Assembly (NCBI GenBank): GCA_016186395.1
Contig: JACPLU010000001.1
Span: 5,036 to 69,035 of the forward strand
Direction of reading: 5' to 3'
DNA length: 64,000 nt
DNA from: Parcubacteria group bacterium
Lineage (GTDB): Bacteria; Patescibacteriota; Minisyncoccia; 2-02-FULL-40-12
The notes beneath the pieces are model-generated. The model was not told where the DNA came from. It was given only the letters and a program-made list of their open reading frames with translations, and did no database searches. This document shows, piece after piece, positions 2,798-50,662 of the stretch. Every line of letters starts with the position of its first letter. Position 1 is the first letter of the stretch. A program made the position numbers and the translations under genes.

Positions 2798-4045
2798 TTG
2801 GCTATGCCCAAAGGTCACGTAATAACGGGTCTTGATATCGGAAACTCTGCGATCAAAGCTGTGATGGTTGAAATACATCCTGATTTTGCGCGTCCGCAAG
2901 TTATAGGGATCGGTACAGCGACTTCAAATGGTATGAGGCATGGCATGGTGGTAGATATGGAAGAGATAGTAAAGGATTTAGACATAGCGGTAAATCAAGC
3001 GGCTCAAACTTCCGGAGTGAAACCTAATAGGGTTTATGTAAATATTAACGGTTCATATATTAGAACGCAGAATTCCCGAGGAGTTATAGCGGTTTCTCGC
3101 GCAGATAATGAGATTTCCGAAGCGGATGTTCAAAGAGTAATTGAGGCGGCATCGGCAGTAAGCTTACCGCCAAACAGAGAAATACTTCATATTATACCAA
3201 GACATTTTATCGTAGATGGGCATGACCAGGTTAAAAATCCAATAGGTATGACAGGCGTTAGGTTAGAAGCAGAAGTTATGTTAATTGACGTTTTATCGCC
3301 ATATATAAAAAATTTGGCTAAGGCAGTAAATCAAAATAATTTGGAAGTAGCAGAATTTGTTTTTACTCCTCTTGCGGCATCTCGTGCTGTTTTAGATAAG
3401 AAGGCAAGAGAACATGGGGCGATGGTTTTAGATATTGGTGGCGGTTTATGCAGTATGGCGATTTTTGAAGAAGGGGATCTTGTCTATACCGGGGTTTTGC
3501 CTTTAGGTAGCCGGCACATTACAAATGATCTGGCTATTGTACTTAGAACATCTCTAGATAATGCTGAGCAGATAAAATTGGAATATGGGTTTGTCGGTAC
3601 TGACAACCTTTCTAAAAAAGATGTTGTTAACCTCTCGGGGGTTATTGGTGAAGAAGAATTTATTGTTCCTAAAAAACAAATTGCTGAAGTTGTAGAAGCT
3701 CGAGTTTTAGAACTTCTTGATCTTGTAAATAAAGAACTTAAAAGAAGTGGTAAAAATTTATTGCCGGCTGGCGTGATGTTGACCGGCGGTGGTATAAAGC
3801 TTCCAGGCCTGGTTCATTTAGTAAAAGAAACTCTTAAACTGCCGGTGCATCTTGGTATCTCAAAAGAGGTTGACGGCATCGTAAATCGTTTAGACGATTC
3901 TGTTTTTACTACTGCAGTTGGCCTTACATTGTGGGGTGCTGACAAAGAAGGGGCCTATTTAAATAAAAGACATTCTTTTCAGGTGTTTGGCAAGAATGCG
4001 GCTATAAATAAAATGAGGGATTGGTTTAAAAATTTTATGCCCTAG
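2798..4045 (+). CDS. ftsA: Cell division protein FtsA
   Basis: Actin-like ATPase N-terminus (ITGLDIGNSAIKAVMVE), a LDIGGG phosphate loop, and its position immediately upstream of ftsZ. Confidence 0.9.
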   Translation: MAMPKGHVITGLDIGNSAIKAVMVEIHPDFARPQVIGIGTATSNGMRHGMVVDMEEIVKDLDIAVNQAAQTSGVKPNRVYVNINGSYIRTQNSRGVIAVSRADNEISEADVQRVIEAASAVSLPPNREILHIIPRHFIVDGHDQVKNPIGMTGVRLEAEVMLIDVLSPYIKNLAKAVNQNNLEVAEFVFTPLAASRAVLDKKAREHGAMVLDIGGGLCSMAIFEEGDLVYTGVLPLGSRHITNDLAIVLRTSLDNAEQIKLEYGFVGTDNLSKKDVVNLSGVIGEEEFIVPKKQIAEVVEARVLELLDLVNKELKRSGKNLLPAGVMLTGGGIKLPGLVHLVKETLKLPVHLGISKEVDGIVNRLDDSVFTTAVGLTLWGADKEGAYLNKRHSFQVFGKNAAINKMRDWFKNFMP

Positions 4046-5348: not shown

Positions 5349-5410
5349 TTGAAATTTGTGGATAATTACAAAAAAATGCCCAAGTGGCGTTTTTTTGTTG
5401 GTTTCTGGGT

Positions 5411-5449
5411 TTGGTGAATAATACTATTTCTCTTTCTTCGTCCCCCCCC
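5411..5449. mobile_element. Partial copy (left end only) of the MITE-like element, followed by a C9 homopolymer
   Basis: tttggtgaataatactatttctctttcttcg matches the left arm of the 14994 and 30098 elements, then ccccccccc. Confidence 0.55.
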
Positions 5450-13872: not shown

Positions 13873-13991
13873 AAAGTTCGTTTTTGACTATTTTTGACTG
13901 ACAGATGGTCAAATGTTAAACTATTGAAATTAGAAGATGCTTTTGGTAACATACTAAAGGCCTATAAGGCCTTTTTGATTGCAATTTAAAT

Positions 13992-14408
13992 ATGCCGACA
14001 TTTAATCAACTTTTAAAAAAATCTAAAACTAGAAGAATTTCAAAGGCGAAAACAAAATCGCCCGCTTTATCATTTGGATTCAATACTTTAAAGAATAAAC
14101 CGAGTTTTTATCCAGCGCCGTTTAAAAGAGGGGTTTGTTTGCAAGTGAGAACAACAACGCCAAAAAAACCAAATTCAGCTTTACGTAAAATCGCCAGAGT
14201 GAGATTGACTAACGGAATGGAGGTTACTGCTTATATCCCTGGTGTGGGGCACAATCTTCAAGAACACTCGGTGGTTTTAATAAGAGGAGGCAGGGTTAAA
14301 GATTTACCCGGTGTTCGTTATCATATTGTTAGAGGAGTATACGACTCTGGAGGGGTTGAGGGTCGTAAACAACAAAGATCAAAGTACGGCGCAAAAAGAT
14401 TGAAATAA
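13992..14408 (+). CDS. rpsL: 30S ribosomal protein uS12
   Basis: [36 protein letters not shown]. Confidence 0.95.
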
Positions 14409-18112: not shown

Positions 18113-18247
18113 GGATAAAAGAATGTTTGACGGTTTATTTTTTCCTGTTATAATAACATAGGAATTACTTCTATATATAAAGACAAAGGGATGGAAACAA
18201 GGGGCAAAGCCGTTTGTTCTCTATTACCTGTCGCTTAAAGCTCATTT

Positions 18248-19450
18248 ATGCCAGAAAAATTTGAAAGGAATAAACCACATATGAATGTCGGAACCGTTGG
18301 TCATGTTGACCATGGAAAGACTACATTAACTGCGTCAATTTTACATGTCGCTAATTTGTTATCTGGCCAAGGCTATAAAGCCAGAGTCGAGGGGGTCAAT
18401 GATATTGATAATGCTCCAGAAGAAAAAGCTCGAGGTATTACTATTGCCCTTCACCATTCCGAATACGAAACACCCAAAAGGCATTATGCGCACGTAGATG
18501 CTCCTGGGCATGCAGATTATATCAAAAATATGATAACCGGTGCCGCTCAAATGGACGGTGCGGTTTTAGTTGTGTCAGCCGCAGATGGCCCAATGCCTCA
18601 AACAAGGGAACACATTCTTTTGGCTCGTCAGGTTGGTGTGCCATCAATTGTTGTATTTTTAAATAAAGCTGATCAAGTTTCTGACCCGGAGCTTATTGAT
18701 CTTGTAGAAACTGAAGTTAGAGAGCTTTTGAATAAGTATCAATTTCCTGGTAACGAGACCCCAATTATTAGAGGTTCAGCGCTTAAAGCATTAGAGGCAA
18801 AGTCTGCTGACGACGAAGCAGTTAAACCAATTAAACAACTTTTAGACACATTAGATTCTTACATGCCTGAACCGGTTCGAGATATGGATAAGCCATTTTT
18901 AATGCCAATTGAAGATATTTTTTCTATTGAAGGCCGAGGCACTGTAGTTACCGGAAAAGCGGAAAGAGGAAAACTAAAGTTAAATGATACTGTTGAGATT
19001 GTGGGTCTTAAGCCAACTCAAAATACTGTAATTACTGGAGTTGAAATGTTTAATAAACAGATGGATGAAACTATTGCTGGAGATAATGTTGGTTTATTAT
19101 TGCGTGGTTTGAAAAAAGAAGACGTAATGAGAGGACAAGTACTTGCCGCTCCTGGTTCTATAACTCCTCATACCGAATTTGACGCGGAGGTTTATATTTT
19201 AACCAAAGAAGAAGGCGGAAGACACACCCCATTTTTTAAGGGTTATAAACCCCAATTTTATGTAAGAACTACAGATGTAACTGGAGAAGTGATTTTACCA
19301 GAAGGTACTGAAATGGTAATGCCAGGAGATACCGTAAATTTGAAGATTAAATTAATTGCTCCGATTGCCTTAGAGGTAAAGATGAGATTTGCCATAAGAG
19401 AGGGGGGTAAAACTGTTGGTGCCGGAGTGGTTACAAAGATTACAGCGTAA
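18248..19450 (+). CDS. tuf: Elongation factor Tu
   Basis: [40 protein letters not shown]. Confidence 0.97.
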
Positions 19451-19454
19451 ATGG

Positions 19455-19565
19455 AATACAAATTTACAAATGATATGCGAATGCAACAAATAATATTATG
19501 TATCAAATAGTAAGCATGAATTATTCGTACGTGCGCATTCGTAGCGCGCTATTAGCATACTGTTC
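19455..19565. repeat. Family D leader-like repeat (diverged copy) upstream of rpsJ
   Basis: caaatttacaaatgatatgcgaatgcaac and attcgtacgtgcgcattcgtagcgcg resemble the 24023 and 26152 copies. Confidence 0.5.
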
Positions 19566-19573
19566 TTTAGAAA

Positions 19574-19909
19574 ATGCCCACTAAAAAACCCAAAAAAGAG
19601 GAGTTACAACAGAGAATTAGGATCAAACTAAAAGCGTTTGACGGTAGAGTTATTGACCGTTCAACAAAACAGATTGTTGAGACTATTGAACGTTATGGCG
19701 CAAAGATGATTGGTCCAGTTCCGTTACCTACAGAAATTTCAAGAGTAACGGTTAACAGGTCACCTTTTGTTCACAAAAATAGTAGAGAGCAATACGAAAT
19801 GAGAGTGCATAAGCGCTTAATTGATATTTTAAACCCAACCCCACAGATTATAGATTCTTTGATGAATTTAAACCTGCCCGCCGGAGTAGATATTGAAGTT
19901 AAAATGTAA
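19574..19909 (+). CDS. rpsJ: 30S ribosomal protein uS10
   Basis: [10 protein letters not shown]...GPVPLPT...[16 protein letters not shown]. Confidence 0.95.
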
Positions 19910-19914
19910 ATAAC

Positions 19915-19995
19915 GTTCTGTGAGCCCGCCTATGGGCGAGACGAGCGGCTAGCGGAATTTATCCCGAGGAGCATAAGCGACGAGGGACGGATTCT
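19915..19995 (+). other. Anomalously GC-rich segment immediately after rpsJ
   Basis: gagcccgcctatgggcgagacgagcggctagcgg...cccgaggagcataagcgacgagggacgg, in an otherwise AT-rich context. Confidence 0.35.
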
Positions 19996-20124
19996 TTAAA
20001 AAATGGAAAACGAACCAAAAACTGAAAAATATTTTCTCAACAAAGACGAAAAATAGAGATTCTTGGCTCAATTAAAGTTGCAGCATTAGAGATACAAAAA
20101 AGGGCGGCAGAGCTGATTGACTTA

Positions 20125-20277
20125 ATGCAACAAGCAGAAGACAATATTGATAAGAATGGGGAAATAACTATGACCGAAGATCTAAAAGAAGGTGTTCTTA
20201 GAGGAATCTATAATATAAAAAGGAGGCAAGAAGTTTTTTCTCGGATTGAGCATATAGAAGAGTTTAAGGATAAATAA
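20125..20277 (+). CDS. Possible small ORF (50 aa from the ATG; open from 20032) in the rpsJ-rplC spacer
   Basis: MQQAEDNIDKNGEITMTEDLKEGVLRGIYNIKRRQEVFSRIEHIEEFKDK. Not in the supplied track. Coding status uncertain. Confidence 0.25.
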   Translation: MQQAEDNIDKNGEITMTEDLKEGVLRGIYNIKRRQEVFSRIEHIEEFKDK

Positions 20278-20292
20278 AATTATTCCCTTCCT

Positions 20293-20350
20293 CTTGCCAT
20301 AATTCATGGTTCGAGCTTCAAGCTTCATGTTTCATGAATAGGTGGCAAGC
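20293..20350. repeat. Family B repeat (TTCATGTTTCA/GTTTCAAG units) inside a 7-bp hairpin cttgcca...tggcaag
   Basis: cttgccataattcatggttcgagcttcaagcttcatgtttcatgaataggtggcaag. Confidence 0.75.
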
Positions 20351-20477
20351 GATAAGGTAGTAATGCCTTAGTAAATGAAAATTATGGTTTTACCGTTACT
20401 AAAGCCAGACTAAAATTAAAGTATACAAAGATTTAGCGTTTTTATTATGCCCAGCTAAATCTGGGTTTTTTGTTGAA

Positions 20478-21113
20478 ATGACTAAGTTTATTCTAGGTAA
20501 AAAAATCGGTATGTCGCAAGTATTTAAAGAAGACGGAGCGGTTATTCCGGTTACTTTAGTTGAAGCCGGACCAGTTACAGTCACCAAGCTTAGGACAAAA
20601 GAAAAAGACGGTTATGAAGCGATCCAGATAGGATCGCAAAAATCAAAAATCAAAAATCCCCGGCCTCGCCAAGCGAAGCGGGGCGGGCAAAAATCAAAAT
20701 TTGAGAACCTGAAAGAATTTAAACCCAAGTTTCAAGATTCAAGTTTCAAGATTCAAGACTTCACTCTTGGTCAAAAAATTGATGTATCTATTTTTGAAGA
20801 AGGAGAAGTTGTAAAAATTAGCGGAGTTTCTAAGGGTAAGGGTTTTCAAGGAGGAGTGAAACGTCATGGATTTCACGGTATGCCGGCAAGTCATGGTCAT
20901 AAGCATGTTACTCGTACTCCAGGATCAATCGGGCAGAGGTTTCCACAGCACACTCTTAAAGGAACAAGAATGGCTGGTCATATGGGTCATGAAAGGGTAA
21001 CTGTTGAGGGGTTAAAAGTTGTTAAGGTAGACAAGGAAAATAATATTTTATTGATAAAAGGAGCGATTCCGGGTAGACGGGGAACTCTAGTTGAGATTGT
21101 TAATGATAATTAA
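20478..21113 (+). CDS. rplC: 50S ribosomal protein uL3 (contains an in-frame family B-like tandem unit at 20728-20760)
   Basis: GKKIGMSQVF...VTKGKGFQG...HGSIGQRFPQ. The internal aagtttcaagattcaagtttcaagattcaagac encodes KFQDSSFKIQDF. Confidence 0.95.
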   Translation: MTKFILGKKIGMSQVFKEDGAVIPVTLVEAGPVTVTKLRTKEKDGYEAIQIGSQKSKIKNPRPRQAKRGGQKSKFENLKEFKPKFQDSSFKIQDFTLGQKIDVSIFEEGEVVKISGVSKGKGFQGGVKRHGFHGMPASHGHKHVTRTPGSIGQRFPQHTLKGTRMAGHMGHERVTVEGLKVVKVDKENNILLIKGAIPGRRGTLVEIVNDN

Positions 21114-27148: not shown

Positions 27149-27214
27149 AGCATGTAGCATGTAACCCGAATCATTTAAAAAGTTTTAGGTTTCAGGTTTC
27201 AGGTTTTACGATTC
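27146..27214. repeat. Family B repeat supplying the rplE stop (TCATGA) and the rpsZ start (TTCATGG)
   Basis: aatcatgaagcatgtagcatgtaacc...gtttcaggtttcaggttttacgattcatgg. Confidence 0.75.
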
Positions 27215-27400
27215 ATGGCAAAAAAATCACTAATAGTTAGATTAAAAAAACCAAGAAAATTTCAGGTTCGTAGTAGGGGCCATTGTTTTATTTGTGGACG
27301 GACCCATGGATATTTGAGTAAATTTGGTCTTTGTAGGATACATTTTAGAGAATACGCTAATAGGGGTTTGATTCCAGGAGTAAAGAAGGCATCATGGTGA
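27215..27400 (+). CDS. rpsZ: 30S ribosomal protein uS14, zinc-binding type Z
   Basis: 61 aa, [23 protein letters not shown]. Confidence 0.9.
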
Positions 27401-27889: not shown

Positions 27890-27950
27890 GTATTAAAAAT
27901 TAAACATCAAACCTTATTTTTGATTTTTGATTTTTGAATTTTAATTTTGT
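27890..27950. repeat. Family C repeat (TTTTGA/TCAAAA units)
   Basis: catcaaaccttatttttgatttttgatttttgaattttaattttgtttga. Confidence 0.7.
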
Positions 27951-33268: not shown

Positions 33269-33986
33269 TAAACTTTCAGTCATTGTTCCTGCCTTTAATG
33301 AATCAGAAAGAATAATCCCGACTTTAGATTCTCTAAATAATTATTTGTCTAAACAGTCTTATGATTGGGAAGTTTTGGTAGTAAACGATGGTTCGACTGA
33401 CAATACTGCTGAAGTGGTTAGGAGTTTCATGTTTCATGTTTCAGGTTTCAGGTTGTTGGATAACAAAGAAAATCATGGCAAGGGTTGGGTAGTAAGGCAG
33501 GGAATGCTAGCGGCAGAAGGAGATTTTAGATTATTTATGGATGCTGATAACGCAACCAGAATTGAAACTGTTGAAAAATTCTGGCCCCTTTTTAATCAAG
33601 GTTATGATGTAGTAATTGCTTCAATTGGTATTAAGGGAGCGGACGTAGCTGGTACAGAGAAATTTTATCGGCGTATCTTTGGAAAACTGGGTAATCTTTG
33701 GATTCAATTTTGGGTTACACCCGGGATATTGGATACACAAAGAGGATTTAAAATGTTTTCAAAAGTGGCAGCCGGTAAAATTTTTCCAAAGCTTAAAATT
33801 CTAAAGTGGGGATTTGATGTAGAGGTTTTGGCTTTGGCAAGAAAATTTACTTTTAAGATAAAAGAGGTTCCAATAAAATGGGTTAATGATCCGAAGAGTC
33901 ACGTTAAGTTAACTGCTTATATTCAAGTTTTACTTGAGGTTTTGAAAATAAGATGGAATCTATGGACAAACAAATATAATGTCTAA
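33228..33986 (+). CDS. Family 2 glycosyltransferase (polyprenyl-phosphate sugar synthase-like); contains a second in-frame family B unit at 33424-33456
   Basis: LSVIVPAFNESERI...VLVVNDGSTDNT, DxD-like MDADN. The internal gtttcatgtttcatgtttcaggtttcagg encodes SFMFHVSGF. Confidence 0.8.
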   Translation: MIHVSRFAFHVSRIKLSVIVPAFNESERIIPTLDSLNNYLSKQSYDWEVLVVNDGSTDNTAEVVRSFMFHVSGFRLLDNKENHGKGWVVRQGMLAAEGDFRLFMDADNATRIETVEKFWPLFNQGYDVVIASIGIKGADVAGTEKFYRRIFGKLGNLWIQFWVTPGILDTQRGFKMFSKVAAGKIFPKLKILKWGFDVEVLALARKFTFKIKEVPIKWVNDPKSHVKLTAYIQVLLEVLKIRWNLWTNKYNV

Positions 33987-35051: not shown

Positions 35052-35059
35052 TTTATAAA

Positions 35060-35117
35060 CTTGGCGAATAATACTCTTTCTCTTTCTTCGCAAAACCTGT
35101 TCAAGAGTATTATTCCG
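35060..35117. mobile_element. Deletion-derivative (mini) copy of the MITE, with both termini fused
   Basis: cttggcgaataatactctttctctttcttcgcaaaacc joined to tgttcaagagtattattcc. Confidence 0.7.
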
Positions 35118-35131
35118 CCATGCTTTAATTT

Positions 35132-35752
35132 ATGATTGGCCTTATTTCTTTAGTCAGTAGTTTTGCCCTTGGTTTTATTGAAAAAACCGGATATACCGGT
35201 GTTTTTGTCTTGTCATTGCTAGAAAGTGCCGCTATACCGGTCCCGTCAGAAATAGTAGTTCCGTTTTCCGGGTTTTTAGTTTCGCTGGGTAGATTTAATT
35301 TTTGGGTAATTGTAATTTTAACAAGCCTAGCTAATCTGTCCGGTTCAATAATTCTATTTTTTATAGGGAAAAGCGGTGGTCGGTGGATTTTAGAACATTA
35401 TGGTAAGTATATTTTTGTGCATCGTGACGATCTTGAGAAAAGCGATAAATGGTTTAAAAAGTATGGGTCAAAAGCAGTATTTTTTGGAAGGTTGTTGCCG
35501 GTAGTTAGAACTTTTATATCTTTGCCAGCTGGAATAGCAGAAATGAATTTTTATAAATTCAGTCTTTTTACCTTTTTAGGTGCCTTGCCTTGGAATTTTG
35601 TTTTAGCCTTGATAGGATTAAAAGCAGGAGAAAACTGGAATATCTTACATGAGTATTTTAGAAAATTAGATATTTTTATTTTATTAACCATTTTGGGTTT
35701 GATAGTTTTTTATTTATTTAAACATTTAAAAAAACAAAAAAGATATGTCTAA
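35132..35752 (+). CDS. DedA family membrane protein
   Basis: DedA signature region VFFGRLLPVVRTFISLPAGIAEMNFYKF and the TM topology. Confidence 0.8.
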   Translation: MIGLISLVSSFALGFIEKTGYTGVFVLSLLESAAIPVPSEIVVPFSGFLVSLGRFNFWVIVILTSLANLSGSIILFFIGKSGGRWILEHYGKYIFVHRDDLEKSDKWFKKYGSKAVFFGRLLPVVRTFISLPAGIAEMNFYKFSLFTFLGALPWNFVLALIGLKAGENWNILHEYFRKLDIFILLTILGLIVFYLFKHLKKQKRYV

Positions 35753-39141: not shown

Positions 39142-39149
39142 TTTTATAT

Positions 39150-39440
39150 GGTAGATCGGGTGATTGCCTTGATGTCATAGTCAGGGAGGAAAGTCCGAAC
39201 ACTCACCTAGCGCTTTCATTGAAAGAGCTGGGTAAAATGGTAGCAGGTAACGCCTGCCATGCAAAAGCATAGAGGTGCGAACAGTGACGTCTGCGGCGCA
39301 AGCCAAAGAGAGCCCAATCCCAAGCTAGTAGGCTTAACTCCGTTATAGGGACAAAAAAACGGAGGTGAAACGAGTATTGCTATGGTAACATGGCGATCCG
39401 CTAAATCCTTACCTGGGTGCAAGATCAAACTTGATAATTT
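39150..39440 (+). ncRNA. rnpB: RNase P RNA (reduced bacterial type); boundaries approximate
   Basis: GGGAGGAAAGTCCGAAC (P4 5' strand signature), GCAGGTAACGCCTGC, GGAGGTGAAACG, AACTCCG motifs in the canonical order. Confidence 0.6.
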
Positions 39441-39550
39441 TTAAAGATTATCAAAGGAACGTAGATCGCATTGAGGCTCGATGGCGACATCGGCCCCAGA
39501 TAAATAATCACACAAATACAGAATTCGGCTTATAGATCTACCACAATCTC

Positions 39551-44214: not shown

Positions 44215-46098
44215 ATGAGTGATTCAAATATCCGTAATTTCTGCATTATTGCTCACGTGGACCATGGAAAGTCGACCCTTGCGGATCGGCTTTTAGAATT
44301 AACTGGTACTATAGATAAACGCAAGATGCATGATCAATTTCTAGATATGCATCCGCTTGAACAAGAGCGGGGTATTACTATAAAACTTCAGCCTGTGAAA
44401 ATGATTTATAAATTGCCTAAAGACGAAAGACTAAAGACTAAAGAAGAAATTTACTCTGGCGTTAGTCACTTGACCTTAGACGTTGGTCAAGATTCAGAAT
44501 TTATTCTGAATCTTATTGACACACCAGGACATGTCGATTTTTCTTATGAAGTTTCTCGTTCACTTGCTGCAGTGGAAGGGGCAGTTTTGTTGGTTGATGC
44601 GACCCAAGGGGTACAGGCTCAAACTTTAGCTAATTTTAATTTAGCCAAAGAACAAAAATTAGATATTATTCCGGTTCTTAATAAAATCGATTTGCCAACT
44701 GCCAGAGTTCAGGAGTCAGAGGAACAACTGGAGTCTCTTTTGGCTAGTTATGAAAATGTCTATAAGGTTGACGGGGAAATTTTAAAAATTTCTGGGAAAC
44801 TTGGAACTAATGTAGATAAACTCTTGGGGGCAATAATTAAAAACATCAGATCACCAAAGACGGATATTAAAATACCTCTTAAAGCATTAATCTTTGATTC
44901 TCTGTTTGATCCTTATCGGGGGGTAATAGCTTATGTAAGAGTTTTTGAAGGACAGGTTAAACCTGGCGATAGTATTTTTCTTTCTGCGCAGAAAACAAAA
45001 AGTGAAGTTGTAGAAGTTGGTATTTTTGCTCCGGCACTAAAAAAAGAGGAATTATTGTTGGCTGGAGAAATTGGCTATATTGCGACCGGTCTAAAAGATA
45101 TTTCAAAAGTAAAAGTTGGAGATACAATAACCATTTATCCCCAACCGTCTGAATTTAAAGCGCTGGCCGGTTATAAAGAATGCCAGCCTTTAGTTTTTGC
45201 AAGTTTATTTCCCAGAAATCAAGACGATTTTGAATCAACTAGAGACGCATTAAATAAACTTAAACTTCAGGACGCAGCATTGCTATTTGAGCCTGAAAGC
45301 TCGTCTGGTTTAGGAAGGGGGTTTAGATGTGGTTTTCTTGGGCTTTTACACGCCGAGATTGTAGGAGAAAGATTGAAACGTGATTTTGGATTAGATCTTA
45401 TAATTTCAACTCCGTCCGTCCAATATCAAATAACTTTAATGAATGACGAAAGATTTATTATTCATTCGGCGTCTAAATTACCTGATCCAAGTAGGGTTAA
45501 ATTTATAGAAGAGCCGATTGTAAAACTTGAAATTTTAACTCCCCAAAGTTATGTGAGCCAGATTTTAGACTTAATCAAAGAGTACAGAGGGCAGTATGTT
45601 GATTCAAATTATTTAGCTGCCGATACTATAATTTTGCAGGCTAATGCCCCGTTGGCAGATATGATTGTAGATTTTTATGATAGGCTAAAAAGTGTTAGTT
45701 CTGGGTATGCGTCTTTAAGTTATGACCTCATCGGTTATAAAATAGAGAAGCTTACCCGTTTGGATATTTTGGTAGCAGGGGATATGGTTGAGCCTTTTTC
45801 AAGAATCGTACCAGAGATTAAGATTCACCAAGAAGCAAAAAGAATCGTTGAAAAATTAAAACAGTTAATCCCCCCTCAACTTTTTGAGGTTGCGATTCAA
45901 GCTGCTATAGGGGGTAAAATTATAGCTCGAGAAACACTACGTGCTAGGCGCAAAGATGTTACTGGTTATCTGTATGGTGGAGATGTAACCAGAAAAATGA
46001 AGCTTTTAAAGAAGCAAAAACGCGGCAAGGAAAGATTGAAAGAATCAGGCCGCGTTAATATTCCTCAAGAAGTATTTTTAGAGATGTTAAAACGCTAA
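44215..46098 (+). CDS. lepA: Elongation factor 4 (LepA)
   Basis: [23 protein letters not shown], and the LepA-specific C-terminal domain. Confidence 0.95.
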   Translation: MSDSNIRNFCIIAHVDHGKSTLADRLLELTGTIDKRKMHDQFLDMHPLEQERGITIKLQPVKMIYKLPKDERLKTKEEIYSGVSHLTLDVGQDSEFILNLIDTPGHVDFSYEVSRSLAAVEGAVLLVDATQGVQAQTLANFNLAKEQKLDIIPVLNKIDLPTARVQESEEQLESLLASYENVYKVDGEILKISGKLGTNVDKLLGAIIKNIRSPKTDIKIPLKALIFDSLFDPYRGVIAYVRVFEGQVKPGDSIFLSAQKTKSEVVEVGIFAPALKKEELLLAGEIGYIATGLKDISKVKVGDTITIYPQPSEFKALAGYKECQPLVFASLFPRNQDDFESTRDALNKLKLQDAALLFEPESSSGLGRGFRCGFLGLLHAEIVGERLKRDFGLDLIISTPSVQYQITLMNDERFIIHSASKLPDPSRVKFIEEPIVKLEILTPQSYVSQILDLIKEYRGQYVDSNYLAADTIILQANAPLADMIVDFYDRLKSVSSGYASLSYDLIGYKIEKLTRLDILVAGDMVEPFSRIVPEIKIHQEAKRIVEKLKQLIPPQLFEVAIQAAIGGKIIARETLRARRKDVTGYLYGGDVTRKMKLLKKQKRGKERLKESGRVNIPQEVFLEMLKR

Positions 46099-50340: not shown

Positions 50341-50460
50341 AATTATATCTAGATTTGCCGATGTAGTCCCGATTTTGCTCTGCAAAATCGAGGATCCTCG
50401 ATGGCAAAGCCGTCGGGACTCAACGGCAGAGTCCCGACTTTGTCGAGGATCCTCGATTAT
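50341..50460. repeat. Nested palindromic element related to the MITE core (two copies of TCGAGGATCCTCGA with GTCCCGA/TCGGGAC-type arms), immediately upstream of tRNA-Thr
   Basis: gattttgc-tct-gcaaaatc, atcgaggatcctcgat, gtcgggact-N9-agtcccgac, tcgaggatcctcga. Confidence 0.65.
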
Positions 50461-50474
50461 TAGCAGAACTTAGA

Positions 50475-50546
50475 GCCGGCATAGCTCAGTGGTAGAGCAA
50501 CTGTTTTGTAAACAGTAGGTCGTCAGTTCAAATCTGACTGCCGGCT
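50475..50546 (+). tRNA. tRNA-Thr (anticodon UGU)
   Basis: Acceptor GCCGGCA/TGCCGGC, D-arm GCTC-AGTGGTA-GAGC, anticodon stem ACTGT/ACAGT with loop TTTGTAA, T-arm GTCAG-TTCAAAT-CTGAC. Confidence 0.85.
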
Positions 50547-50662
50547 CTAAGTTCTGGATAATCGGGGCAACGCTTTTGTAAAGCGAAGGTTCCGAGTTCA
50601 AGTCTCAGGGTCGGCTCTAACGGGATAAATAGGTTATGGGTTCAAATTCCTCTGTCGGCTTG
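50547..50662 (+). pseudogene. Two tandem degenerate tRNA-Thr-derived remnants (one near full length with intact anticodon loop and T-arm but an unpaired acceptor; one 3'-half only)
   Basis: ...ACGCTTTTGTAAAGCG...CCGAGTTCAAGTCTCAGGGTCGGCTCT, then ...ATGGGTTCAAATTCCTCTGTCGGCTTG. Both end in the (T/G)CGGCT(C/T)T acceptor-like tail of the intact gene. Confidence 0.55.

Follow-up and report, generated by a model that had tools for sequence, protein, structure and literature searches.

A candidate transcription attenuator leader upstream of rplC-rplD in Parcubacteria

The last ~95 nucleotides (nt) of the spacer between rpsJ and rplC in a Parcubacteria-group genome (candidate phyla radiation, CPR, or Patescibacteria) appear to form a transcription attenuator leader of the rplC-rplD operon, a reading that we hold with moderate confidence on the strength of sequence comparison. 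The DNA analyzed is a stretch of 64,000 nt, hereafter the window, in which tuf (18248–19450), rpsJ (19574–19909), rplC (20478–21113) and rplD (from 21117) follow one another on the + strand, as do the spacer features described below. The spacer is 568 nt long, and the proposed leader occupies 20384–20477, where it probably throttles transcription of the main ribosomal-protein operon. The data support the hairpin that precedes rplC as a regulated attenuator rather than a chance hairpin: it keeps its place in 44 genomes, its stem covaries, an upstream strand competes with it, a short upstream open reading frame (uORF) usually accompanies it, and in some relatives a promoter stands in front of the whole.

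The hairpin itself, GCCCAG-CTAAAT-CTGGGT, lies at 20449–20466 (-7.9 kcal/mol) and has the makeup of an intrinsic terminator, a stem of six pairs, four of them G-C, with a 6-nt loop and then the U-tract TTTTTTGTT at 20466–20474. A sequence-only reading of this DNA had noticed a terminator-like hairpin 15 nt before the L3 start; the hairpin is indeed present, at a distance of 11 nt from the rplC ATG. With hairpin and U-tract this close to the start codon there is no space for a promoter, and every rplC transcript must therefore read through them. No Shine-Dalgarno site is present in front of rplC, the U-tract sitting where one would be.

For comparison we used 80 loci (576 kb; L-numbers below denote compared loci) gathered by L3 similarity, the L3 relatives being 46–62% identical; an exact-sequence lookup of the window L3 returned no record. 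A hairpin with a T-run is found immediately 5' of rplC in nearly all Patescibacteria loci, and the stem sequences vary, as in TGCCCAG/CTGGGCG, CACCGG/CCGGTG, ACCGAC/GTCGGT, TGTCGGGG/CCCCGACA and GCGGGG/CCCCGT. The hairpin and T-run occur in the S10–L3 spacer of 36 curated relatives and, by covariance model, of 8 more, giving the 44 genomes; in most of the curated relatives the hairpin ends 5–25 nt before the rplC ATG. In a MAFFT alignment of 29 relatives, 80.7% of stem cells are paired and 37 carry a double change, compared with 12.9 ± 2.4 after shuffling (0 of 500 shuffles reach 37), and the signal collapses when the partner columns are slid. The covariance model built from this alignment was searched against the 576 kb and gave 42 matches at E ≤ 1, all of them inside the S10–L3 spacer and none elsewhere; two are the reverse strand of the same hairpin, and eight fall in loci outside the curated set. 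All 42 thus place a conserved RNA element directly 5' of a ribosomal-protein operon, as in an autogenous leader. Within the window the terminator site scores 42.5 bits and the second-best match 25 bits. The idea that the model simply finds generic terminators was rejected, given this margin within the window and the absence of any E ≤ 1 match outside the S10–L3 spacer in 576 kb.

A second element is a strand capable of preventing the hairpin. The sequence AGATTTAGC at 20429–20437 is the exact reverse complement of GCTAAATCT at 20454–20462, so that nine perfect pairs can form with the loop as a whole, the final base of the 5' arm and the two bases that open the 3' arm. The duplex is worth -12.1 kcal/mol (-5.3 ± 1.5 in shuffles), and RNAfold places the pairing in both the minimum free energy (MFE) and the centroid fold of the window region. 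When the duplex energy of the 43 upstream nt with a loop-centered target was compared with that of dinucleotide shuffles, 37 leaders gave a mean z of -2.46, with p < 0.05 in 21 of them, whereas 250 other terminator-like hairpins from the same loci gave a mean z of -0.23, with 6.8% at p < 0.05. The partners covary across genomes, as seen for AGATTTAGC/GCTAAATCT, AGTTTTAGT/GCTAAAACT, ATTGCC/GGCAAT, GTACTAACC/GGTTAGTGC and CGGTTT/AAACCG. These observations amount to what defines an attenuator, an upstream strand that is mutually exclusive with the terminator and kept by covariation. Loop and strand also hold a sequence preference, GCTRR/YYAGC, beyond what pairing needs. The window energies of the two folds are -7.9 kcal/mol for the terminator and -9.3 kcal/mol for the antiterminator, and of the 37 leaders 17 take the antiterminator and 20 the terminator as their MFE fold. 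Such near-equal stability is what a switch needs, and since the two folds are about equally stable, the outcome would be decided kinetically.

Upstream of the switch lies the uORF, MVLPLLKPD* (ATG GTT TTA CCG TTA CTA AAG CCA GAC TAA), at 20384–20413. An ATG ORF of 4–12 codons occurs at this constant place upstream of the hairpin in 26 of 37 leaders, versus 24 of 366 control terminators (Fisher p = 9e-19), and shuffled sequences would give 5.6 ± 2.1 leaders; the equivalent uORF begins with GTG in L033, L050, L177 and L195. From its stop codon to the antiterminator strand the median distance is 13 nt, mostly 9–18, and 15 nt in the window. A short ORF at a fixed distance from the switch is the arrangement of a leader-peptide attenuator. 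The peptides of near relatives include MVLTLIKT, MVLIFNKT, MVLIFSKT, MVLTEPI, MQILFVKT and MQILLNKI, and those of distant ones MSSILSIWYVL, MSILSIHDVRGA, MRFVIGA and MNAKLAL. Hydrophobic residues dominate in them, a Lys stands close to the C-terminus (MVLxxxKT), and no run of codons is common to them. In L010, a synonymous TTA-to-CTA change disrupts a local hairpin and keeps the peptide, while the uORF of L008 carries a 105-nt insertion that is open and in frame; both favor real coding by the uORF.

The region upstream of the uORF ATG is enriched in sigma-70-like sequence, with a score of 8.15 compared with 6.47 ± 0.21 for shuffles. In five relatives (L025, L038, L053, L054 and L067), TTGACA and TATAAT or TATACT stand 16 or 17 nt apart and are followed, after 6–7 nt, by the uORF ATG. 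A promoter this close would start the transcript at the ATG, which would make the uORF of these five leaderless. The same five carry a canonical terminator directly after rpsJ, so that in them rplC very probably heads its own transcription unit. The sequence-only reading had offered regulated read-through or a separate promoter for rplC-rplD; the former gains comparative support from the conserved terminator, antiterminator strand and uORF, and the latter from these canonical promoters. The comparison thus brings out an anatomy of promoter (in relatives), short ORF, fixed spacer, antiterminator strand, terminator and rplC, from which we infer the function.

These results bear on a simpler explanation, in which the hairpin is a leaky intrinsic terminator that ends a tuf-rpsJ(-small ORF) unit and sets a fixed, lower downstream level with no regulatory input. 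The short stem and U-tract are typical of such a terminator, EF-Tu is required in excess of ribosomal proteins, and in the short-spacer relatives rpsJ and the hairpin stand too close together to fit a promoter between them. A leaky terminator, however, has no need of a complementary upstream strand, and control terminators of the same loci lack one; nor does it account for the uORF enrichment, or for the retention of a second hairpin in relatives that already have a terminator after rpsJ and then a promoter. Given the control results, a purely constitutive leaky terminator is unlikely, and we give this explanation little weight. A role in rplC translation, with hairpin and U-tract serving as a standby or S1-binding site or as a translational operator rather than acting on transcription, seems more improbable still. 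It would draw on the fact that rplC lacks a Shine-Dalgarno site and has a U-rich tract exactly in its place, and L4 of E. coli represses translation too (PMC3616713), but in 10 curated relatives the hairpin lies 39–336 nt from the ATG, too far for a start-site operator, and a stem that has a U-run and faces competition from an upstream strand points characteristically to control of termination.

If the leader is an attenuator, we favor the following mechanism. Pairing of 20429–20437 with 20454–20462 would prevent the terminator hairpin. A ribosome at the uORF stop codon would abut and partly melt the weak, AU-rich antiterminator, allowing the terminator to form; when ribosomes are scarce, the antiterminator would form and RNA polymerase would read into rplC. 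A ribosome with a stop codon in its A site shields ~10 nt downstream, as judged from toeprint geometry, and with the spacing between stop codon and strand its leading edge would meet the first pairs of a marginal AU-rich helix. The net outcome would be negative feedback on ribosome production, and the sign could also be the reverse. The rest of the spacer, with its variable GC-rich hairpins, a frameshifted, fast-evolving small gene and a further conserved hairpin, would be accessory. By extension, many Parcubacteria may govern the main ribosomal-protein operon by a ribosome-sensing attenuator, in which a leaderless uORF of 5–12 codons at the extreme 5' end of the rplC transcript would signal whether a free ribosome has engaged the nascent RNA, and a ribosome parked at the uORF stop, ~13 nt from the antiterminator strand, would decide between termination and read-through; we offer this extension tentatively, as a conjecture that is less likely than not.

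Several observations weigh against the attenuator reading or against its ribosome-sensing form. Lineages with short spacers (86–112 nt; L037, L039, L044, L046–L049, L052 and L056) have no separate uORF and keep antiterminator and terminator, and the uORF therefore cannot be a universal sensor. A search for an anti-antiterminator, pairing the uORF region with the antiterminator strand, found none (mean z = +0.18, 0 of 24 significant), which leaves spacing as the link between translation and the switch. A tentative hairpin within the uORF, P1 (UGGUUUUA/UAAAGCCA; 20385–20407, -6.1 kcal/mol, z = -2.1), is present in part of the family alone (mean z = -0.9) and was not recovered by RNAalifold; support for P1 as a conserved element is weak. 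In the window the site before the uORF is a weak promoter-like sequence with 6 of 12 matches, and transcripts of the window leader may come instead from the tuf promoter at 18127. In 10 of the 36 curated relatives, the 39–336 nt between hairpin and rplC leave room for another promoter. The p-values overstate independence, as the leader sequences are phylogenetically related. Finally, we infer termination, read-through and the start site alike from sequence, and in which direction the regulation acts is conjecture.

The persistence of the switch in lineages lacking the uORF makes a trans-acting effector, L4 or L3, a serious rival to ribosome sensing. Here the same switch would respond to a downstream ribosomal protein that promotes termination when it exceeds free rRNA, and the uORF would be incidental or modulating. 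Autogenous control is the rule for ribosomal-protein operons, the E. coli S10 operon is attenuated by L4 (PMC3616713), and L4 is the presumed ligand of an Archaeoglobi leader upstream of rplC-rplD (PMC7247131); the GCTRR/YYAGC preference, moreover, could be a protein contact, and the core exists in lineages without the uORF. Against such an effector, there is no conserved protein-binding structure besides the switch, P1 being weak and an anti-antiterminator not found, and no similarity to any Rfam ribosomal-protein leader. The uORF enrichment, the fixed spacing and the promoter start at the ATG would also be left unexplained. We regard control by a ribosomal protein as possible and on present evidence doubtful.

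Control of ribosomal-protein operons by terminator/antiterminator leaders is established, as in the E. coli S10/L4 (PMC3616713) and B. subtilis rplJL (PMC4538822) systems, and the rplC leader is functionally like these two and the infC leader of B. subtilis (PMC3616713, PMC4538822, PMC1865079). The E. coli S10 leader also precedes an operon with rplC and rplD, has an intrinsic-type terminator in its 5' untranslated region, and serves to match ribosomal-protein output to ribosome assembly (PMC3616713). It lies in the 5' leader of rpsJ, however, whereas the window element is downstream of rpsJ, between that gene and rplC; it comprises at least five hairpins (HA–HE, HG) and no leader peptide, depends on NusA-dependent pausing stabilized by L4 with no antiterminator strand, and is confined to Gammaproteobacteria. 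Its multi-hairpin structure gave no match in 19400–20600 (Rfam 15, E ≤ 10) or in 17 related loci, the presence of an S10-leader model in Rfam not having been verified. The suggestion in the sequence-only reading of a relocated or analogous E. coli control point thus does not hold as a relationship of sequence or structure, since Rfam gives no match and both position and architecture differ.

The L10(L12)4 attenuator of B. subtilis rplJL shares an antiterminator, an intrinsic terminator and a short translated ORF, a leader peptide, that influences expression (PMC4538822). It differs in that its anti-antiterminator is a protein-binding site, of which none was found in the rplC leader, and in that its peptide presumably exerts its effect through a block on Rho; it also belongs to another operon and another phylum and shows no homology. 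The L4-Archaeoglobi leader of Eckert and Weinberg (2020) is a candidate leader directly 5' of rplC-rplD-rplW-rplB (PMC7247131), but it is archaeal, has another structure with no terminator/antiterminator/uORF logic described, and gave no match in the Rfam scan of the window. Attenuators of the trpL type likewise place a short ORF in the leader, ahead of antiterminator and terminator folds that exclude each other. The rplC leader differs from them in that its uORF peptide has no run of regulatory codons, it lacks a 1:2 (pause or anti-antiterminator) helix, and it controls ribosomal proteins rather than biosynthesis, so that what is sensed would be translation itself. Mycobacterial leaderless short-ORF attenuators resemble the rplC leader in having the ORF at the transcript start, as predicted for its best relatives. 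We found no description of a CPR rplC leader in the literature. Given its location, its architecture, which has neither a multi-hairpin protein site nor an anti-antiterminator, and the lack of an Rfam match, we rate the element as a putative new ribosomal-protein leader or attenuator family, widespread in Parcubacteria, and not a member of the families compared here.

Two other leaders were seen in passing. In the window, rpsL (S12; 13992–14408) is preceded by a promoter-like TTGACT-17-TAAACT (leader 13894–13991), a 6-codon ORF, MLLVTY (ATG 13937 to TAA 13955–13957), and a palindromic terminator-like hairpin at 13957–13973 with a T-run, 18 nt before the ATG, the ORF stop abutting the hairpin. 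Possibly, then, rpsL belongs to another ribosomal-protein operon with a uORF/terminator leader. Chloroflexota/Thermomicrobiales have a conserved rplC leader of their own, aCACGCTCT-hairpin-TCCTGA...CAGGGGAGAGCCAATG, located 70 nt upstream of rplC in S10–L3 spacers of 100–174 nt (L045, L058, L059, L063, L068, L069, L075, L077 and L079), with no Rfam match in the two loci examined.

The rest of the spacer holds the other features that the sequence-only reading had listed besides the terminator-like hairpin, namely a GC-rich block, a 50-aa ORF and a "family B" repeat within a hairpin, and all four are present. The last of these belongs to a long-stemmed structure, hairpin C, at 20279–20363, directly after the ORF stop, whose base, ATTATTCCCTTCCTCT/AGCGATAAGGTAGTAAT, is conserved and whose apex varies. 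The family B hairpin lies at 20294–20348, and the heptamer repeat TTCGAGC TTCAAGC TTCATGT TTCATGA (20303–20337) makes up the apex. The base is kept in L017, L033, L050, L177 and L195, and L006 has the base only, shortened. Each genome has an apex of its own that nevertheless still pairs, and the z-scores of the folds range from -3.4 to -5.6 (window z = -4.6). Hairpin C is always within the S10–L3 spacer and has no U-tract; it starts 2–19 nt after the small ORF or, in L006, which has no ORF, 7 nt after the rpsJ stop. A metagenome scan with its 14-mer gave 120 stretches, two of them genuine and both in S10–L3 spacers. Hairpin C and the TTCTGTGAG motif of the GC-rich block are each single-copy in the window, and their origin as a dispersed repeat or mobile element was rejected there for this reason. 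We regard hairpin C as another conserved structure, of RNA or DNA, that is specific to this locus; among the possibilities are a 3' stabilizer or processing site of the small-ORF message and a protein site.

The heptamers of the apex belong to repeat family D1, which has 13 copies in the window and is common in intergenic regions of the genome. Arrays with a 7-nt period (GTTTCAN, CTTTAGA and ATTTTTG types) occur throughout the window, mostly in intergenic DNA and often as inverted pairs; examples are 796–826, 1217–1256, 27178–27215, 27912–27949, 33421–33459 and 44414–44450. Repeats of the same kind stand in frame inside rplC, at 20637–20658 (three CAAAAAT units) and 20726–20763 (five CAAGTTT/CAAGATT units), where they encode the central loop region of L3, and similar heptad repeats are found in the spacers of L024, L030, L042 and L043. 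A separate inverted repeat pair of ~215 nt, 14991–15204/30101–30315, is 94–97% complementary and has partial copies at 5406–5447, 35058–35132 and 50373–50458; its core, ...TCGAGGATCCTCGA..., is also seen in the L033 spacer.

The 50-aa ORF (ATG 20125; 20125–20277) exists as well, within an open frame of 83 codons that starts at 20026, after a TGA at 20023–20025, rather than at 20032 as first read. The frame is longer than chance would give, being reached in 0.6% of 2000 dinucleotide shuffles (p ~0.006), and its codon bias is gene-like, with first-position G at 0.34 and T at 0.11, as in rplC, rpsJ and tuf. Conservation, on the other hand, was not borne out. Word-indexed and exhaustive phmmer searches of 5.8 billion proteins and 1.84 billion cluster representatives returned identical copies only, apart from a single match to a 2908-aa protein (E = 2.7e-6 over 29 residues); there is no Pfam family, and all-against-all BLASTP of the spacer ORFs gave no family, the ORFs being alignable over ~9 N-terminal residues only. 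Upstream, in a different frame, an ATG...TAG ORF of 17 codons at 20003–20056, MENEPKTEKYFLNKDEK*, appears to be the head of a small gene. It shares its N-terminus (~23 of 27 nt) with two ORFs at the same place, the intact 62-aa ORF of L033 (MEQLPKIEQ...) and that of L050 (MEQEPKIEQ...), which breaks at an A9 run. The simplest reading is a single gene of ~91 codons (20003–20277) in which the frame shifts by -1 near GAA AAA TAG (20048–20056), and the 50-aa ORF would accordingly be the tail end of a small, fast-evolving gene that a frameshift has broken. An assembly artifact as the source of the break was rejected, as five independent Logan assemblies give a sequence that is identical or differs by 1 nt. 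The result may be a pseudogene, a slippage-dependent gene or an expressed 50-aa remnant. The ORFs of L050 (3412–3678, at the A9 run) and the window (20003–20277, at GAAAAATAG) both break soon after ME(N/Q)EPK(T/I)E, in opposite frame directions, and this pair of breaks may reflect slippage-prone tracts or parallel decay.

The GC-rich block, 19914–19995, consists of two hairpins (19914–19947 and 19954–19995) and no U-tract. Its presence and fold stand: 19915–19995 has 59.3% GC compared with 37% for the window, at the 99.87th percentile of 81-nt windows, folds at -32.1 kcal/mol (z = -2.5) and is single-copy in the window. As a conserved structured RNA it does not stand, because only short fragments recur in relatives, TTCTGTGAG in L007, L008, L009 and L011 and CGGAATTTAYCCCG in L050, the remaining relatives having other GC-rich hairpins or none. 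Most likely, the hairpins of the block evolve fast and belong to the 3' end of the message that carries tuf and rpsJ. Rfam reports no match in the spacer at the gathering threshold, and with Rfam 15 at E ≤ 10 the region 19400–20600 gave three chance-level matches alone (MIR169_2, RyhB and STnc550); 17 related loci gave no match, and neither tRNA nor transfer-messenger RNA was found in the spacer. Elsewhere in the window, the Rfam scan found no 23S rRNA, and a bacterial class A RNase P RNA lies at 39148–39548 (102.7 bits, gathering threshold 100). ARAGORN calls two overlapping tRNA-Thr(TGT), 50475–50547 and 50540–50617, of which Rfam reports the first alone.

The genes flanking the spacer are those expected, rpsJ being a 111-aa ORF whose identical gene in Logan contigs matches Pfam Ribosomal_S10. 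A strong promoter-like site, TTGACG-16-TATAAT plus an upstream TG, lies at 18127, ahead of tuf. The tuf-rpsJ gap (19451–19573) matched no RNA family (Rfam 15, E ≤ 10). It contains ACGAAT/GCGAAT-rich motifs (e.g., tacaaatgatatgcgaatgcaacaaat) that are also present in the L012, L018 and L023 spacers and resemble both the window repeat pair 24002–24069/26132–26199 and the "tacgaat" repeats beside the rplC leader in some relatives.

The sequence-only reading had taken S10 and L3 to be normally contiguous and the spacer to be an unusual insert. Neither assumption survives for Patescibacteria, where the S10–L3 gap in 47 loci of this type spans -2 to 3021 nt (median ~180 nt) and is at least 400 nt in 13; a spacer such as this one is not unusual for the clade. 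The gap is -7 to 27 nt in Ignavibacteria, Nitrospirota and Thermodesulfovibrio, and 13–174 nt in Chloroflexota. Unrelated ORFs of 62–198 aa occupy the same place in L007, L017, L033, L050, L177 and L195, and between rpsJ and the rplC leader L025 carries a 271-aa gene (2833–3648) with a cytidine/dCMP deaminase zinc-binding domain (PF00383, E = 6e-8). The presence of unrelated ORFs at one place marks the junction, ahead of the rplC leader, as a hotspot whose cargo varies. Together, this is evidence that in CPR the rpsJ-rplC junction, which is generally regarded as invariant, serves as an operon boundary and is a hotspot of gene insertion.

Almost nothing is known about gene regulation in CPR bacteria, which are mostly uncultivated and account for a large share of bacterial diversity. 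The leader described here, at the head of the largest ribosomal-protein operon, would be a new class of ribosomal-protein leader from outside the well-studied phyla, and its conservation provides a testable handle on how ribosome output is set in minimal cells. Should the uORF prove to be the sensor, the ribosome would here control the supply of its own proteins through transcription termination, which is unusual. Should ribosome sensing hold true, it would constitute a loop, free of protein factors, that ties ribosomal-protein transcription to translational capacity in organisms with minimal regulation.

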